In this document: in pieces, positions 6,876-56,088 of the stretch
Layout of the letters: every line of letters begins with the position of its first letter
Position numbering within the stretch: the stretch's first letter is position 1
Sequence record: NC_028927.1
Reading direction: 5' to 3' (one strand)
DNA: 64,000 bases
DNA from: Escherichia phage slur02
Position numbers and translations under genes: made by a program
Notes under the pieces: generated by a model
Database searches by the model: none
Told to the model about the DNA's origin: nothing
The model's input: only the letters and a program-made list of their open reading frames with translations

Positions 6876-8463
<1,588 letters not shown>

Positions 8464-8470
8464 AATAAAA

Positions 8471-8486
8471 TGGGCCTTGCGGCCCA
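8471..8486 (-). other. GC hairpin (TGGGCC-GCAA-GGCCCA) between nrdB stop and denA start
   Basis: Perfect 6 bp stem with tetraloop read directly; U-rich 3' flank on minus-strand RNA; lies within about 10 nt of the denA ATG. Confidence 0.5.
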
Positions 8487-8490
8487 CTCC

Positions 8491-9669
8491 TTAAAAATAT
8501 TTTTTAAAACTCATCATAACTTTATCATCAACGTCATTATCAATCTGTGCTACAAGATAAGATGACAGTTCTACTTCTTGCGGCGCGGATTGAACATTAT
8601 CAGAATTAAGATATTCACGAATCCAAGGATATGGATGTTTAACCGGAGCATCGGTAATTGGGCATGGAAGACCACACTGTTTCATACGAGATACAGTTAA
8701 GTAATCAATAAAGCTCCACATGCTATTTGTATTTAATCCAGGAACATCGCCATCTTTAAATAAATGAACTGCCCAATCTTTTTCTTGGCGGTTAACTTCC
8801 ATGAAAATATCAACTGCTTCTTGTTCACACTCTTTGGCAATTTTAACCCATTCATCACCATCCGTGCCAAGTTGAAGTTGACGAATAATATATTGTGTAC
8901 CTTTAAGATGAAGCTGCTCATCACGTGCAATGAACTTCATAATCTTGGCATTACCTTCCATGATTTCCATGTTCTTATGGAAGTTAAAGGTACATGCGAA
9001 AGATACATAAAAACGAATAGCTTCCAATGCGTTGATTACGTGTAGGCAGAGGTAAAGAGAGCGCATTAGTTCACGTTTCCAATACATTTCATGCTCTATG
9101 GCATCTTTAATATCATCTTCGTCTGCATTAATTTCTTTTTGGTATTCGATATCAGCTTTAGCGTTTTCCCAATAACGAGTTTTAATCAGAACATCATCAT
9201 AATAACGTCCAATGGATTCAGCACGTTTCATAATAGCTTCATCTAATACAATTTCATCAAATACCTTCGATGGATCAGTATAAAGATTTCGCATGATATG
9301 TGTATATGAACGACTGTGAATAGTTTCACTAAAAGTCCATGTAGCAACCCATGTATCAAGACTTGGGTCTGAAATTAACGACATAAGTACAGCAGATGGT
9401 GCACGACCCTGAATGCTATCCAAAAGTGATTGATACTTCAGGTTATTAGTAAAAATATCTTGCTGATATTGAGGAAGCTTGTTAAATTGCGCAGCATCCA
9501 TCATTAAGTTTACTTCTTCGGGACGCCAAAAAAATGATAAAGATTTCTCAATAAGTTCTTCAAATACTCTATGTCGTTGAATATCATATCGAGCTAAACC
9601 CAATCCAGAACCAAAAAACATCGGCTCAGTCAAAATATTAACAGGGGATGTATTAAAAACTGTACTCAT
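8491..9669 (-). CDS. nrdB: ribonucleotide reductase small subunit (NrdB)
   Basis: 392 aa continuous ORF (no intron) in the denA-nrdB-nrdA arrangement of T4. Confidence 0.95.
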   Translation of the reverse strand: MSTVFNTSPVNILTEPMFFGSGLGLARYDIQRHRVFEELIEKSLSFFWRPEEVNLMMDAAQFNKLPQYQQDIFTNNLKYQSLLDSIQGRAPSAVLMSLISDPSLDTWVATWTFSETIHSRSYTHIMRNLYTDPSKVFDEIVLDEAIMKRAESIGRYYDDVLIKTRYWENAKADIEYQKEINADEDDIKDAIEHEMYWKRELMRSLYLCLHVINALEAIRFYVSFACTFNFHKNMEIMEGNAKIMKFIARDEQLHLKGTQYIIRQLQLGTDGDEWVKIAKECEQEAVDIFMEVNRQEKDWAVHLFKDGDVPGLNTNSMWSFIDYLTVSRMKQCGLPCPITDAPVKHPYPWIREYLNSDNVQSAPQEVELSSYLVAQIDNDVDDKVMMSFKKYF

Positions 9670-10307
9670 TTAGAATCCTTAAATTTACATTTATCATAAT
9701 GCCATCTTAAAGCATTGCCTTTATTAACTTTCTTGCCACAATGCGGACAAGGCGGATACTCTGTACCTTGCTTAGTTCTCAAAGAAATCAAATCACGGGT
9801 TTCTTTAGTATGAGGAACATCTCTTGTCGGAGAGATTGTACCATACATCGGATTAAGCACGCCGACTTTAGCAGCAGCTATATTCTTTTTAGCTTCTTCG
9901 GTTTTAGGTTTTCTCATGCGAGCTAAATGCTCTTTGGTAAATTTCCTTCCTTTAAGGGCTCTACTTATCTTTTCTCTGGTTTCCATAGAAACTTCACGTC
10001 CTGTAGCAGCTTCAGATAAACGTCGTCTACCTAATTCGTACAGTTGAGAAGAAATTTTATATGAGCGATTTTTACCAGTCAAGCACATTAAACCAAAAGC
10101 TTTCTTTAATCCTGGGGTGTCATATATTTTACATAAAAGCCAATGAGCTATAAAATGCTCTCTACCTGTTAATTCAACTAAATTTTCTTTATCATCAGAA
10201 CCTCCCATACATCTAGGGATTATATGATGTGTCTCTTTATATTCAGATAAAGGTTCCCGAGCCTGAGCTCGGGAAATTAGGTCATTATAGATTTTTTGAT
10301 AATTCAT
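9666..10307 (-). CDS. mobE: HNH endonuclease, freestanding homing-endonuclease-like (mobE-like), 213 aa
   Basis: HNH motif HHIIPRCMGGSDDKENLVELTGREHFIAHW; wedged between nrdA and nrdB with overlapping boundaries as for T4 mobE. Confidence 0.75.
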   Translation of the reverse strand: MNYQKIYNDLISRAQAREPLSEYKETHHIIPRCMGGSDDKENLVELTGREHFIAHWLLCKIYDTPGLKKAFGLMCLTGKNRSYKISSQLYELGRRRLSEAATGREVSMETREKISRALKGRKFTKEHLARMRKPKTEEAKKNIAAAKVGVLNPMYGTISPTRDVPHTKETRDLISLRTKQGTEYPPCPHCGKKVNKGNALRWHYDKCKFKDSK

Positions 10308-12571
10308 TACAATTTACACGCTGCACAATCTTCAGCTTTTGGAGTTTCTATTTCATAATCATCAGTACCAGAACCATCGCGGGTATTATGATAATAGAAA
10401 TTTTTTCCGCCAAAATACCAAAAATACAAAAGGTCATCAATCATTATTGACATTGGAACCTTGCCTTTAGGGAAGATTTGGGGGTCATAGTATGTATTCG
10501 CCGAAGCTGATTGACAAACCCATTTCAGCATAATAGCTACCTGCGTAAGATAAGGTTTATTACCTTTCTTAGCTAATTTCCATGTATAGTCGTAAAGGTC
10601 TATGTTATGCTCAATATTGGGCACGACTTGATTAAAGGAGCCCTCTTTTGATTCTTTAACAGAGACTGGTCCACGTGGAGGCTCGATACCGTTTGTACTG
10701 TTAGAAACTTGGGAAGATGACTCACATGGCATAAGTGCTGATAATGTGCTATTACGGATGCCAAAGAGCTTAAGGTCTTCCCGCAGCGACGACCAGTCAC
10801 AAACGTATTTTGGAGCTGCGATTTGGTCAATCTTTTTATTGTACCAGTCGATAGGTAATTCGCCTCGAGACCAACGAGTGTCTGAATAATATTCGCAAGG
10901 TCCTTTTTCTTTGGCGAGCTTAATGGATGCTTTAATGAGTCCATACTGTAATCTCTCAAATAGTTCATGTGTTAAATCGTTAGCATCTTCATAAGAAGCA
11001 AAGTTACTTGCCAGCCAAGCTGCATAGTTAGTAACACCTACACCAAGGTTTCGACGCTTTTTAGCTTTTTCTGCTTCAGGAACTGGATATCCTTGGTAAT
11101 CCAAAAGATTATCAAGAGCACGAACTTGAACTTCTGCTAATTCATTAATTTTATCTTGGTCTTGCCAATCGAAGTTATCCAGCACAAATGCAGATAACGT
11201 GCACAATCCAATTTCAGCATCAGGGCTATTCACATCATTTGTTGGAATAGCAATTTCACAGCACAAGTTACTCTGACGAATAGGTGCCTTTTCACGAATA
11301 AACGGAGTATAGTTATTCGTATTATCAATGAACTGCACATAAATCCTTGCTGTTCCTGAGCGTTCAGTCATGAGCAATTCAAATAGTTCACGGGCTTTAA
11401 TACGCTTTTTGCGAATATTAGGGTCTTTTTCTGCTGCTTCGTATAATTCACGGAAACGGTCTTGGTCTTTAAAATAAGAATAATAAAGCTCGCCACCCAT
11501 TTCATGCGGACTGAACAAAGTAATGTAGTCGTTCTTTCCAAAACGTTCCATCATTAGATCATTCAGTTGAACACCATAATCCATATGACGAATGCGGTTT
11601 TCTTCTACACCTTTGTTATTTTTCAAAACAAGAAGATTTTCAACTTCCAAATGCCAAATAGGATAATAAGCAGTAGCAGCGCCGCCACGAATTCCACCTT
11701 GTGAGCATGATTTAACAGCAGTCTGAAAATGTTTCCAAAAAGGAATAACACCAGTATGGCGTACTTCACCCATGCCAATCTTAGAACCTTCGGCACGAAT
11801 CATACCAACGTTAATACCAATTCCAGCACGTTTGGAGATATATTCAACAATTGAAGCGGAAGCCTTATTGATAGACTTTAATGAATCACCTGCCTCAATA
11901 ACAACACATGAACTAAACTGTCGAGTCGGAGTACGACAACCAGCCATAATAGGAGTTGGTAATGAAATCTGTCGAGTAGATACTGCTTCATAAAAACGGA
12001 TAACGTGTTTTAATCTATCAACAGGTTCATCTTGATGCAGTGCCATTCCAATAGTCATAAATGCAAACTGTGGAGTTTCATAAATTTGACCAGTGGTTTT
12101 ATCTTTAACTAAATATTTTTCTTTTAATTGCATCGCCCCGGAATAAGTAAATTCCATATCCCGCTCGTGCTTAATTTTTGATTCTAAAAATGTAATTTCT
12201 TCTGCTGAATATTTTGACAATAATTCAGGGTCATATTTACCTGCATTTACACAATAAGAAATATGGTCAATAAATGAACGTGGTTCATACTGCCCATAAA
12301 CATGCTTACGAAGAGCAAACATTAAACAGCGTGCAGCTACATATTGATAATCAGGCTCTTCAACCGAAATAGAATTCGCAGCAGCCTTAATGACAATAGT
12401 CTGAATATCATCAGTTGTCATTCCATCACGGAGATAAGATTTAATATTTTCATATAATTCATAAGGATCTACTGATGTTCCTTCAGCTGCCCAAGATAAA
12501 ACTTTAATAATTTTTTGTGGGTCAAAGCTCTGAGAAACACCACTACTTTTGATAACATTAATTAATTGCAT
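10307..12571 (-). CDS. nrdA: ribonucleotide reductase large subunit (NrdA), 754 aa
   Basis: 754 aa as T4 NrdA; class I RNR large-subunit sequence; synteny. Confidence 0.95.
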   Translation of the reverse strand: MQLINVIKSSGVSQSFDPQKIIKVLSWAAEGTSVDPYELYENIKSYLRDGMTTDDIQTIVIKAAANSISVEEPDYQYVAARCLMFALRKHVYGQYEPRSFIDHISYCVNAGKYDPELLSKYSAEEITFLESKIKHERDMEFTYSGAMQLKEKYLVKDKTTGQIYETPQFAFMTIGMALHQDEPVDRLKHVIRFYEAVSTRQISLPTPIMAGCRTPTRQFSSCVVIEAGDSLKSINKASASIVEYISKRAGIGINVGMIRAEGSKIGMGEVRHTGVIPFWKHFQTAVKSCSQGGIRGGAATAYYPIWHLEVENLLVLKNNKGVEENRIRHMDYGVQLNDLMMERFGKNDYITLFSPHEMGGELYYSYFKDQDRFRELYEAAEKDPNIRKKRIKARELFELLMTERSGTARIYVQFIDNTNNYTPFIREKAPIRQSNLCCEIAIPTNDVNSPDAEIGLCTLSAFVLDNFDWQDQDKINELAEVQVRALDNLLDYQGYPVPEAEKAKKRRNLGVGVTNYAAWLASNFASYEDANDLTHELFERLQYGLIKASIKLAKEKGPCEYYSDTRWSRGELPIDWYNKKIDQIAAPKYVCDWSSLREDLKLFGIRNSTLSALMPCESSSQVSNSTNGIEPPRGPVSVKESKEGSFNQVVPNIEHNIDLYDYTWKLAKKGNKPYLTQVAIMLKWVCQSASANTYYDPQIFPKGKVPMSIMIDDLLYFWYFGGKNFYYHNTRDGSGTDDYEIETPKAEDCAACKL

Positions 12572-12888
12572 AAGTCCTCAACTTGAAAATCGTCTTTAAA
12601 CAATCGGTTAACTATATGAGCTATTATATCACCATGACACGGCTTTGGTTTACATGTGCATCCTAGCCTCATTCCACGTAAAGGCTCTAAATGTGCTTTA
12701 GTTATTTCTCCGGATTTAATTCGACGTATAAAATCTTTTTTGAATAATTCAATGGCAGCCTCCCGGCTGCCAGCATCTTTACCGACGTGATTTCCCCAAA
12801 ATGTACCGCGGTGAATATTAACATCAAAGTCGGATTTGTATTTATTCACTACCCGGCATAGACGGCCCGGTTGGTAATAATTCTTCAT
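12562..12888 (-). CDS. hypothetical protein (108 aa)
   Basis: ORF track; overlaps nrdA start; position of T4 nrdA.x ORFs. Confidence 0.5.
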
Positions 12889-13105
12889 ATTGTTTTTCCG
12901 TTAATACAGTAATATCATAGTAACAATCGGAAGAAGTTTTAACTGTGGAAATTTTATTGTCAAAATACTCACGAGTCATTTTATGAGTATAGTATTTTTT
13001 ACCATAAATGGTAATAGGCTGTTCTGGTCCTGGAACTTCTAACTCGCTTGGGTTAGGAAGTGTAAAAAGAACGGCACCAGAAGTATCTTTAAATCGTAAA
13101 ATCAT
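12842..13105 (-). CDS. hypothetical protein (87 aa)
   Basis: ORF track; overlaps neighbours. Confidence 0.45.
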
Positions 13106-13962
13106 ATTGCCATTTTCCCTTTAATTGCTGGATGCGATTCATAATTTTCAAGGATAAAATCTTTCGGTTTCATGTATTCAGTTAACCAGTAAAGCTGTGT
13201 TTCGGTGTCACAATTTCCAAACTCTATAGGCCAATCAATTTTAAGTTCACACAGTTCTTTAGGCTCACGACGTAAAATTTCTTTACATTGCTCAGTATGA
13301 TTCATATAGATGTGAGTATTACCACCAGAAAATATCAAATCTCCTGGGATAAGATTACACATCTTAGCCACAATATGCGTCAAGGCAGCGTACGAGGCAA
13401 TGTTGAATGGCAAGCCCAAGAAAACATCTACACTTCTTTGGTACCATTGTAAATCAAGATAACCATTACGCACATTAAACTGATAGAACATATGACAGGG
13501 CGGTAATGCCATTTGATTGATTTCAGCTGGATTCCATGCTGAAACGATTTGACGTCGATCAGTTGGTAATTTTTTAATACGATCAATAGTTTCAACTAAT
13601 TGATCCACACCACCGAAATCACGCCATTGTTTACCGTATATAGGACCAAGTTCACCACTATGATATCCTAGGTCTTTAGCCTGGTTTTCATAGTTATCGT
13701 CCCAAATAGTTTTACCTTGAATAAGACTACCATGAGTGCGAAGACGTAAATCATTAACATTGGTAGAACCGGAAATAAACCATAAAAGCTCAGCAACGCA
13801 TGCATTCCAGGCGAGCTTCTTAGTTGTTACTGCAGGAAAACCTTTGGTTAAATCCCAACGCAATTTAGTACCGAACAGAGCAATTGTTCCTGTGCCCGTT
13901 CGGTCATCGGTTTCATAGCCATTTTCAAAAATGTCTTTAATTAAATCTTGGTATTGTTTCAT
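13102..13962 (-). CDS. td: thymidylate synthase (286 aa, intronless)
   Basis: 286 aa continuous ORF; ThyA-like sequence; no intron. Confidence 0.95.
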
Positions 13963-42227: not shown

Positions 42228-44048
42228 CTACTGGCTCATCCATTCTTTACGAAGGTCAGCATTATCTCCCATGAGCATTTCAAAAAGCTCTTTCCAGTTC
42301 TCAGGAAGTTTAACAACATCATATACTGGATTTTGAATCATCTCACGATATTCAGATTTTTCCAAAGAGCCAAGTCCTTTAATATAACGGATGCTATGTT
42401 TAGGTAGAGCATCTTTGGCACTCTCATATTCAGCGACTGTATAAAACCATTCTTGTTTTTTACCGACCTGAGCGATGATTACCGGAGTTTTGACAAAGCG
42501 AATTCGTCCTTGCTCAAACAATTCTGGCCAATTACTAAAAAACCCGAGCAGAGAAGGATAAATGCTTCCTAGACCATCATGGTCAGCATCAGTCATAATA
42601 GCAATATTGCGATAATTCAAGTTTTCAGCTTTTTCACCAAGAACTAGACCAGTGATTGCGCAAATATCAAATAGTTCTTTGTTTTTAAGCATATCAGCAT
42701 ATGACATACCCCAACTGTTGAGAACTTTACCACGCAATGGATAACCACCATGAAGTTCTTTATCACGAACATCAATAAGATATCCGATAGCCGAATCACC
42801 CTCAGTCAGGAAAAGAGTAGTGTCAGCATCTTTACCACAAAGATTCGCTTTGATATGTTTATGAACTTTAGCTTTAGAAGCCTTTTTAGCTGCTTTAGTT
42901 TCAGCTGCTTTTTCTGCTGCCAATTTACGGGCCAAGGCAGCTTCAATAATTGGCATCAAAATAGCTTCATTATTTAGAATAGCGCGTGAAATCTTTTTAG
43001 CATCAAGCTGAATATGACTACGAATTTCGCCAAATGGAGAAGTCAAACGCTCTTTAGTTTGAGAATCAAATCGCATGTTTTTCATATCACGAACAAACAT
43101 AACGATAGTCAAACATTCTTTAACACGTGCTTTAGTTACATCAATTTTGAATTTACGTTTGATTTGTGGAATAAGGTCTTCACAAATATCATCCATAACG
43201 CAGTCAATGTGATGGCCACCATTCTTAGTGTGAATGTTATTCACATAAGTTAATTGACGAAATCCATCCGGTGAACGACCAACCGCAATAGAACAATTTT
43301 CTTGTTCTTGAACAATAGCATGTTCATCATACTGTCGTGCATATTTCTTAAAATTGCCCTGAACCTTTTTACCATTAAAGGTAAATTGAATATCAGGATA
43401 AACAACAGCAAGTGTCTGGAGACGATCTAGTGTAATGTCAAGATAAACTTGGGACAGCTCATTAGTTTCAAATGACATAAAATCAGGAATGAAAGTAACA
43501 CGAGTTCCTTTCCATTTTCCAGGAATAGTTTCCCAGGATTTATTTTCCATGCCATTTGAACAACGAACTACAATATTATTTTGACCATCGCCAGTTTCAC
43601 CGACAAACATCACAGAAAAAATGTTAGTTAAACTAGAACCAACACCATTCATACCACCGGTGACGCGTTCTTTATCATCACCAAAGTTACCACCTGCTTT
43701 TGGAATAGTCCAAGCAGCAACTGGGCCAGGAATTTCTTCACCGGTAGGTGTTTTAACCATCGCTTGTGGAATACCGCGACCGTTATCTTCAACTGTTACC
43801 TGATTATTTTTAATGGTAACATTAATTTTATTTGCGAATTTAAACTTAGTACGAATACCTTCATCTACTGAGTTATCGATAATTTCATCAATAAGCTTAA
43901 CAAGACCAGGTACATACTGAACACTTTCCCATTTACCAAACAGAAAGCGCTCATGCATTTCATTAGCTGAAGAGCCAATGTACATGCCGCTACGCTTTTT
44001 GATATGTTCAATATCGCTCAGAATTTTAATTTCATTCTTAATCATCAC
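42228..44048 (-). CDS. 39: gp39 DNA topoisomerase II large (GyrB-like ATPase/Toprim) subunit, uninterrupted 606 aa form
   Basis: GHKL ATPase and Toprim motifs (EGDSA); 606 aa, about the length of T4 gp39 plus gp60 combined. Confidence 0.9.
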   Translation of the reverse strand: MMIKNEIKILSDIEHIKKRSGMYIGSSANEMHERFLFGKWESVQYVPGLVKLIDEIIDNSVDEGIRTKFKFANKINVTIKNNQVTVEDNGRGIPQAMVKTPTGEEIPGPVAAWTIPKAGGNFGDDKERVTGGMNGVGSSLTNIFSVMFVGETGDGQNNIVVRCSNGMENKSWETIPGKWKGTRVTFIPDFMSFETNELSQVYLDITLDRLQTLAVVYPDIQFTFNGKKVQGNFKKYARQYDEHAIVQEQENCSIAVGRSPDGFRQLTYVNNIHTKNGGHHIDCVMDDICEDLIPQIKRKFKIDVTKARVKECLTIVMFVRDMKNMRFDSQTKERLTSPFGEIRSHIQLDAKKISRAILNNEAILMPIIEAALARKLAAEKAAETKAAKKASKAKVHKHIKANLCGKDADTTLFLTEGDSAIGYLIDVRDKELHGGYPLRGKVLNSWGMSYADMLKNKELFDICAITGLVLGEKAENLNYRNIAIMTDADHDGLGSIYPSLLGFFSNWPELFEQGRIRFVKTPVIIAQVGKKQEWFYTVAEYESAKDALPKHSIRYIKGLGSLEKSEYREMIQNPVYDVVKLPENWKELFEMLMGDNADLRKEWMSQ

Positions 44049-54629: not shown

Positions 54630-54875
54630 TTATTCACCAGTTACTTTCCACAAATCTTCATTTGCAGCAATCCATTCAGTACGTTGATTTTCTTCATATA
54701 CTGTAGAATACGCTGCTTTTTCTGAAGGGAATGTCTGGTAATGAGCGCCAGAAATTTTGTGAACATCAGAATAAAGAGGGAAAGCTACAGAAATTTCCTT
54801 TCCTTCAATTTTCTTATTTCCATCTAATTTCTGCTCAAATGTTTTGATATTAACATAACCGCGAGTACTAGCCAT
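54630..54875 (-). CDS. soc: Soc small outer capsid protein
   Basis: 81-codon ORF; sequence recalled as T4 Soc (MASTRGYVNIKTFEQKLDGNKKIEGKEISVAFPLY...). Confidence 0.9.
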   Translation of the reverse strand: MASTRGYVNIKTFEQKLDGNKKIEGKEISVAFPLYSDVHKISGAHYQTFPSEKAAYSTVYEENQRTEWIAANEDLWKVTGE

Positions 54876-55816: not shown

Positions 55817-55887
55817 TATTTTTCCTTTCAATTCATGGGTTAGTAGATTAATTATACAATAAATATATAAAGCAATAAGGAGGACAT

Positions 55888-56088
55888 ATGGTACAAAAAT
55901 TAATGGCACTTGTTGATGCCATAAAAGGTAATAAAAAACGTATAGCTTTTACTATTTCTGCTATGGTAGGAATTTTACTCTGGAACTTTATTTTATCACC
56001 TGTTGCAATTGCACATGGTATTAATATTCCAGTAGTTACTCTTGATACATTCGTAGATTTAGCATTTGCTTTAGTTGGGTTAATTTAA
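55888..56088 (+). CDS. small membrane protein candidate (66 aa), plus strand, convergent with gene 61
   Basis: Strong SD AAGGAGG 5 nt before the ATG; two hydrophobic segments; stop codon overlaps the gene 61 stop on the opposite strand. Confidence 0.45.
   Translation: MVQKLMALVDAIKGNKKRIAFTISAMVGILLWNFILSPVAIAHGINIPVVTLDTFVDLAFALVGLI

Follow-up and report, generated by a model that had tools for sequence, protein, structure and literature searches.

Between nrdA and nrdB, and on the same strand as both, the window (the whole stretch of 64,000 nucleotides that was analyzed) contains an ATG-initiated ORF of 213 codons plus a stop codon (Table 1). The question that this locus raises is whether the ORF is a mobile endonuclease gene of the kind represented by mobE of phage T4, and, if so, to what extent the published account of the T4 gene can be carried over to it. 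In our reading, to which we assign a probability of about 0.9, the ORF is the T6-type mobE, a free-standing HNH homing endonuclease gene that would act by the published T4 MobE model. For the T6-type allele, expression, nicking, homing and immunity would follow T4 by analogy; note that the T4 allele, which is the source of the functional data, differs from the T6-type allele in the central 75 residues. The gene itself is already known, in that the T6 gene has been sequenced and named, the slur04 copy is annotated, and the T4 orthologue has been characterized functionally.

Table 1. Features of the nrdA-mobE-nrdB region, with positions in the window
Feature	Position	Strand	Basis
nrdA, 754 aa	10307..12571	-	upstream neighbour of mobE, same strand
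TAATGA, overlap of nrdA stop and mobE start, coupling arrangement	10304..10309	-	read from sequence
mobE CDS (T6-type allele)	9666..10307	-	ORF and identity to T6/T4 MobE
Predicted intrinsic-terminator hairpin and weak U-tract	10244..10275	-	terminator scan
HNH catalytic core, aa 21-55, SEYKETHHIIPRCMGGSDDKENLVELTGREHFIAH	10143..10247	-	Pfam HNH and invariant residues
Central variable cassette, aa 56-130	9918..10142	-	sharp breakpoints in nucleotide alignment with T4
NUMOD3 motif, aa 103-121, within the central cassette	9945..10001	-	Pfam
Conserved C-terminal module, aa 131-213	9669..9917	-	~97% nucleotide identity to T4
CxxC...HxxxC zinc-finger-like element, aa 187-207	9687..9749	-	weak profile matches to C2H2 zinc fingers
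nrdB middle promoter in mobE 3' end	9693..9716	-	base-for-base identical to T4 X04140 promoter
MotA box AATGCTTTA	9716..9708	-	T4 X04140 identity
-10 TATGAT	9698..9693	-	T4 X04140 identity
nrdB ribosome-binding site AGGA	9679..9676	-	identical to the site annotated in T4 X04140
ATGA, overlap of mobE TGA and nrdB ATG	9669..9666	-	read from sequence
nrdB, 392 aa	8491..9669	-	downstream neighbour of mobE, same strand
Resident MobE-target region in nrdB (presumed immune)	9514..9556	-	alignment and T2 nick map

Identity of the gene and its expression signals

The first-pass annotation had described a 213-aa HNH ORF that overlaps the nrdA stop and the nrdB start in the arrangement of T4 mobE. The description of the ORF is confirmed by the reading frame itself, by the overlaps (direct reading of TAATGA, 10309..10304, gives one base common to the mobE ATG and the nrdA stop), and by a Pfam HNH match. 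The assignment to mobE is borne out by the alignment with T4 MobE (232 aa; 72% protein identity, E=6e-121), by the slot and the overlaps, which are alike in the two phages, and by MobE of phage T6 (MH550421 AXN58263.1; AY262134.2), which is also 213 aa long and 100% identical in protein sequence. In addition, positions 8400-12600 of the window are 100% identical to Escherichia phage slur04 (Tequatrovirus), in whose annotation the same ORF is a 'homing endonuclease'. Every feature that can be tested in silico places the gene in the MobE family. In base composition, mobE does not stand out as foreign, with a GC content of 0.361 against 0.355 in the window.

The protein scores 24.4 bits against Pfam HNH (cut-off 21.4) and 35.3 bits against Pfam NUMOD3 (cut-off 20.4), and it matches PHROG 655, 'homing endonuclease', over its full length (E=3e-67). 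On these family scores, a chance ORF was rejected. Across eight diverged homologues, H27, H28, N42, H51 and H55 of the HNH core are invariant, as are C187, R201, W202 and D205 of the C-terminal module; the HNH residues are unchanged in homologues down to 39% identity. When a profile of the eight homologues is compared with solved structures, it aligns to the HNH cores of a group II intron maturase, McrA and Cas8f-HNH, the matches being marginal only and confined to the HNH core and the zinc-finger-like tail. A phmmer search of solved structures with the mobE protein gave no match, and entries for I-HmuI were absent from the results of both the single-sequence and the profile searches. From the single sequence, AlphaFold2 gave a model too poor for use (mean pLDDT 41, pTM 0.24).

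At the level of sequence, the regulatory features published for T4 mobE are all found here as well. T4 mobE is promoterless and is co-transcribed with nrdA (Wilson & Edgell 2009, PMC2790892). Just past its AUG, a hairpin (9-nt stem, 4-nt loop) terminates 30-50% of transcripts, and the T4 nrdB middle promoter is located within its 3' end (PMC2790892); furthermore, the UAAUGA overlap of T4 suggests translational coupling (review PMC2988022). The present gene likewise has the TAATGA coupling arrangement, an internal terminator hairpin and an embedded nrdB promoter. The hairpin, at 10275..10254 and 29 nt past the mobE ATG, consists of a 9-bp stem (TTCCCGAGC/GCTCGGGAA) and the 4-nt loop TCAG, and folds with -19.1 kcal/mol (z=-3.5); its sequence is identical in T6, T4 and G28, and as a predicted terminator it matches the mapped T4 mobE terminator (PMC2790892). 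A consensus scan also returns several sigma-70-like matches, of which TTGTAA/TATAAT at 10312..10284 spans the mobE start.

Given these T4-identical features, mobE would be transcribed together with nrdA and have no promoter of its own, a weak terminator, the hairpin some 30 nt past the start, would lower the amount of transcript, and UAAUGA would couple translation of mobE to termination of nrdA, which would result in a low level of MobE. Since the nrdB middle promoter lies inside the 3' end of mobE, a precise loss of the gene would be expected to harm nrdB expression, and the embedded promoter would in this way guard mobE against deletion.

Distribution and mobility

mobE is the sole annotated homing endonuclease gene in positions 1-50000 of the window, and a profile of MobE-like proteins matched no other ORF in the whole 64 kb. 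The earlier observations that td and nrdB have no introns here and that no segF-sized ORF lies between soc and gene 56 all hold: td is an uninterrupted ORF of 286 aa (13102..13962), nrdB is an uninterrupted ORF of 392 aa, and the interval from soc (54630..54875) to gene 56 (from 55298) holds only two small ORFs, of 69 and 67 aa. A tblastn search of the 64-kb window with T4 SegF gave no match, and the sites occupied in T4 by segG (32/59), mobA (gene 39/60) and I-TevI (td) are empty here.

For the comparison among relatives, the query consisted of the two 400-nt flanks of the gene without mobE itself; it matched 634 records, which were sampled at even spacing. In 37 of the 45 sampled junction-spanning records of Tequatrovirus type (~82%; T2, RB32 and others), the span exceeds the query by 56 nt, so that these have no insert and their slot is an empty 56-nt spacer. 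The inserts among the 45 fall into four classes: a 642-nt T6-type insert (n=4), a 699-nt T4-type insert (n=1), a 735-nt insert (n=2) and an 875-nt insert (n=1). The 735-nt insert (G28, RB3-type) has only the HNH module in common with mobE and carries a NUMOD1 C-terminus, and the 875-nt insert, found in ECO07P2, codes for a D12 methyltransferase. Counted by DNA matches, the flanks are found in 634 records and mobE in 141, at full length in 48. The final ~20 nt of nrdA vary together with the insert: carriers of an HNH insert all have …GCAGCGTGTAAATTGTAATG, whereas in phages without one (T2, 215Ecol030PP and the methyltransferase-carrying ECO07P2) the end of nrdA is …TCATCCTGTAAATTATGA.

The T6 copy of mobE and the one here differ at three synonymous positions (99.5% DNA identity) and occupy the same slot with the same overlaps to nrdA and nrdB, whereas identity in the flanks (nrdA 3'/nrdB 5') is only 88.6-96.4% (96.4% on one side and 88.6% on the other). 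The corresponding values for Klebsiella Jiaodavirus Boboto are 87.2% in mobE against 72.1% and 74.8% in the flanks.

Boboto is an exception in its own group, since 11 of the 12 sampled junction-spanning Jiaodavirus-type records are empty. It matches the mobE-less KPV15 at 95-100% identity along nrdA and, in nrdB, from nt ~187 on; between these parts lie the insert and a tract, nrdB nt 1-186, with 77-85% identity to KPV15. The T6-type bases in Boboto cluster exactly at the nick site (TCTTTATCA vs KPV15 CAATTGAGT). The pattern is co-conversion-like, with the footprint that homing with co-conversion would be expected to leave, and the end of the tract agrees with the recombination point seen in the laboratory (<189 nt; PMC2790892). 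One observation counts against the main account: the foreign nrdB tract of Boboto is only 73-82% identical to slur04. As a clear cross-genus acquisition of mobE, Boboto adds modest natural-history support. Far from being an ORF present in all relatives with no sign of mobility, an outcome that, by the first-pass annotation, would have spoken against its reading, the gene is missing from most relatives and has been transferred across genera.

In the homing-cycle model, homing endonuclease genes are expected to decay once fixed, and mobE might on this basis be an inactive relic that persists only for two elements in its DNA, the middle promoter of nrdB and the attenuator of transcription; the nrdB promoter does lie within the ORF. 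The activity of T4 MobE, moreover, could not be shown in vitro (PMC2790892). However, dN/dS among T6-type alleles is 0.06-0.20 and is similar across all three protein regions, including those far from the promoter, and the catalytic residues are invariant. In addition, the gene is far from fixed, with ~82% of relatives empty, and Boboto shows a recent acquisition across genera. Because dN/dS is in this range and the HNH residues do not vary, the mobE protein is under selection and not decaying. We consider a relic improbable, and on dN/dS and distribution this reading, including that of a pseudogene, was rejected.

The nrdB target site and allele pairing

The functional evidence comes from T4. 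A nick that depends on MobE and is strand-specific has been mapped at nt 122-126 of T2 nrdB, and deletion of the HNH domain of T4 MobE abolishes the nick (PMC2790892). In crosses between T4 and T2, mobE is inherited at 2.1 x input, or at 1.5 x once the HNH motif has been deleted, and recombination in the progeny maps to the first 189 nt of nrdB (PMC2790892). Cutting by T4 MobE has never been shown in vitro, and the authors left open a double-strand break or an indirect role (PMC2790892). The earlier proposal of a nuclease that targets the nrd locus is supported through the T4 orthologue, with the refinement that the T4 data describe a strand-specific nick in nrdB and not a demonstrated double-strand cut (PMC2790892).

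The caveat stated by the T4 authors (PMC2790892), together with the fact that the evidence for nicking is solely in vivo, leads to an alternative in which nrdB is nicked by a different phage nuclease that MobE recruits or regulates. We judge this to be very improbable: purifying selection acts on an HNH core that is intact and invariant, removal of the HNH domain abolishes the nick (PMC2790892), and related HNH endonucleases, such as I-HmuI, nick directly (review PMC2988022).

In the resident nrdB, the nick region (nt 114-131) is ACTTATTGAGAAATCTTT, in which codon 42 is AAA, and the FFWRPEE-coding block then follows. AAA at codon 42 is among the variants of mobE-carrying phages (PMC2790892), and the region differs from that of the nick-sensitive T2 at many positions. 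At NrdB residues 41-45, EKSLS is found in all five T6-type carriers examined (slur04, T6, HY03, Boboto and LF82-2), EKQLS in the mobE-less T2, ECO07P2, G28 and KPV15, and ERQIS in T4. Note that 215Ecol030PP is mobE-less, yet has the T4-type 'immune' nrdB allele.

If the T6-type gene acts by the T4 model, as we propose, then its N-terminal HNH domain would, during mixed infection, nick the non-coding strand of nrdB at about nt 122-126 in a mobE-less genome, as it does in T4, and the NUMOD3/zinc-finger module at the C-terminus would, as proposed, bind the conserved FFWRPEE-coding block beside the nick. Repair by recombination would then copy mobE and a flanking nrdA/nrdB tract into the recipient, again as in T4. 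Substitutions at the nick site of the resident nrdB (EKSLS codons against EKQLS) presumably protect self DNA.

When compared in sequence, the T4 and T6 mobE alleles are a mosaic with sharp breakpoints round the central cassette. Nucleotides 1-164 of the gene (the HNH module, aa 1-55, plus the hairpin) and the last ~250 nt (the C-terminal 83 aa) are each ~97% identical in DNA to T4, whereas the T4 central part is essentially unalignable with aa 56-130 here, the present gene being 57 nt (19 aa) shorter. In sliding comparison, nucleotide identity to T4 is 54-64% in the central cassette and 92-98% at the ends. As modules, the HNH part and the hairpin are common to the mobE alleles, and the C-terminal module is common to the T6 and T4 types.

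This structure raises the possibility that the homing endonuclease of the T6-type allele is active and has a recognition or nicking preference unlike that of T4, which would be compatible with the main account. The sharp mosaic breakpoints of the central cassette and the 19-aa length difference point in this direction, as does the nick-site allele, which in the genomes examined is strictly paired with the mobE allele (EKSLS vs ERQIS of T4), and the RB3/G28-type gene, with only the HNH module in common, is found beside a T2-like target. However, the comparison covers only a handful of genomes, and the T4 and T6 alleles may use the same site because the C-terminal module and the FFWRPEE-coding block are common to both; on balance, we regard a changed preference as unlikely.

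A broader version, which we put forward only tentatively and with low confidence, is that mobE alleles form a modular series with exchangeable central cassettes, each matched to an 'immune' nrdB nick-site allele. In that case, alleles would differ in nicking preference and could attack each other's carriers, and the nrd junction would be a site of competition between homing-endonuclease alleles, beyond presence versus absence. The central cassette may shift target preference together with the nrdB allele with which it is paired. A 2023 preprint on nucleases at recombination boundaries contains nothing specific to mobE.

Beyond correct annotation, the significance of the T6-type gene is small, the gene being already named and its T4 orthologue studied in detail. 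The allele pairing and the Boboto tract could guide experiments on specificity, and both show how homing elements drive mosaicism in essential genes of nucleotide metabolism.

Comparison with known systems

Apart from the central cassette, T4 differs from the present phage in two respects at the target gene. The resident nick-site allele of T4 is ERQIS, compared with EKSLS here, and T4 nrdB has an intron and I-TevIII for mobE to mobilize in trans, whereas nrdB here has neither.

Other genes occupy the same slot. The RB3/G28-type 'MobE' (243 aa, HNH plus NUMOD1) has the same position and the TAATG overlap, and its first ~165 nt (HNH module plus hairpin) are 96% identical to the gene here, whereas its C-terminal DNA-binding part, with NUMOD1, is wholly different and the nick site of its resident nrdB is T2-like. 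In phage U5, the nrdA-nrdB slot holds hef, an annotated homing endonuclease of 544 aa that is set apart here by annotation only; Hef has been reported as a cutter of nrdB (review PMC2988022). The D12 methyltransferase in the same slot of ECO07P2 is only 35% identical to T4 Dam and is not of the HNH/NUMOD3 type. In Acinetobacter Hadassahvirus Maestro, a homologue with 61% identity also lies between nrdA and nrdB. Remoter relatives (30-45% identity) adjoin other essential genes in many phages.

Among other known endonucleases, those of the I-HmuI type and MobE of phage Aeh1 are alike in combining an HNH nuclease with an extended DNA-binding module and in homing that is initiated by nicking (review PMC2988022). 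I-HmuI, a direct nickase, differs in that it is intron-encoded. Aeh1 MobE likewise has a ribonucleotide-reductase target (review PMC2988022), but the Aeh1 gene splits nrdA, whereas the gene described here is intergenic.

nrdB alleles and the codon 42 rule

The nrdB gene of the window is a mosaic: its segment at ~9000-9165 is 96% identical to that of phage T2 and 71-74% identical to those of T6, T4, G28, and ECO07P2, whereas its 5' end is T6-like, unlike this segment. The encoded protein also differs in length, being 392 aa in slur04 versus 388 aa in T6.

According to a published statement, codon 42 of nrdB is AAG in phages without mobE. Escherichia phage 215Ecol030PP lacks mobE (its nrdA-nrdB spacer is 51 nt) and its nrdB, which is split and apparently contains an intron, carries the T4-type nick-site allele with CGG at codon 42; this phage is therefore an exception to the rule.

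Two public records mislabel genes of this region. The T2 record AP018813 describes nrdA as 'single stranded DNA-binding protein' and nrdB as 'thymidylate synthase', and the HY03 record KR269718 describes nrdA as 'putative capsid vertex'.

Further genes in the window and in other phages

The features discussed in this part are listed in the table. The two small genes upstream of nrdA have hits to DUF4326 (E=6.6e-22) and to DUF5496 (E=7e-59), and overlap both with each other and with the nrdA start. Since the topoisomerase large subunit is encoded by one ORF, the gene 39/mobA/gene 60 split of T4 and the gene 60 bypass element are missing.

Features and their positions (in the window unless a record is named)
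Feature	Position	Strand	Description
nrdA.1 and nrdA.2 homologues	12562-12888 and 12842-13105		small gene pair in the td-nrdA interval
Topoisomerase large subunit gene	42228-44045		single 605-aa ORF
66-aa ORF	55888..56088	plus	sole ORF at the gene 56-gene 61 position
D12-class N6-adenine methyltransferase	L006:2945-3736		263 aa; nrdA-nrdB (mobE) slot of Escherichia phage ECO07P2 (Tequatrovirus)
RB3-type HNH gene	L007:2901-3632		phage G28

The G28 gene shares with mobE its first ~165 nt, comprising the HNH module and a terminator hairpin, at about 96% identity, but the C-terminus of its product is unrelated to that of MobE and contains NUMOD1. Because of this C-terminus, and because nrdB of G28 itself carries the T2-like, supposedly sensitive nick-site sequence, sequence comparison suggests that the two genes have different targets.

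Methyltransferase in the mobE slot

In T4, dam is located between gene 56 and gene 61; a tblastn search of the corresponding interval of the window (55817-56085) detected no Dam homologue. In ECO07P2, the protein encoded in the mobE slot matches the D12-class N6-adenine methyltransferase family of Pfam (E=5.5e-24), and thus a homing-endonuclease hotspot houses a non-nuclease cargo gene, whose product shares only 35% identity with T4 Dam.
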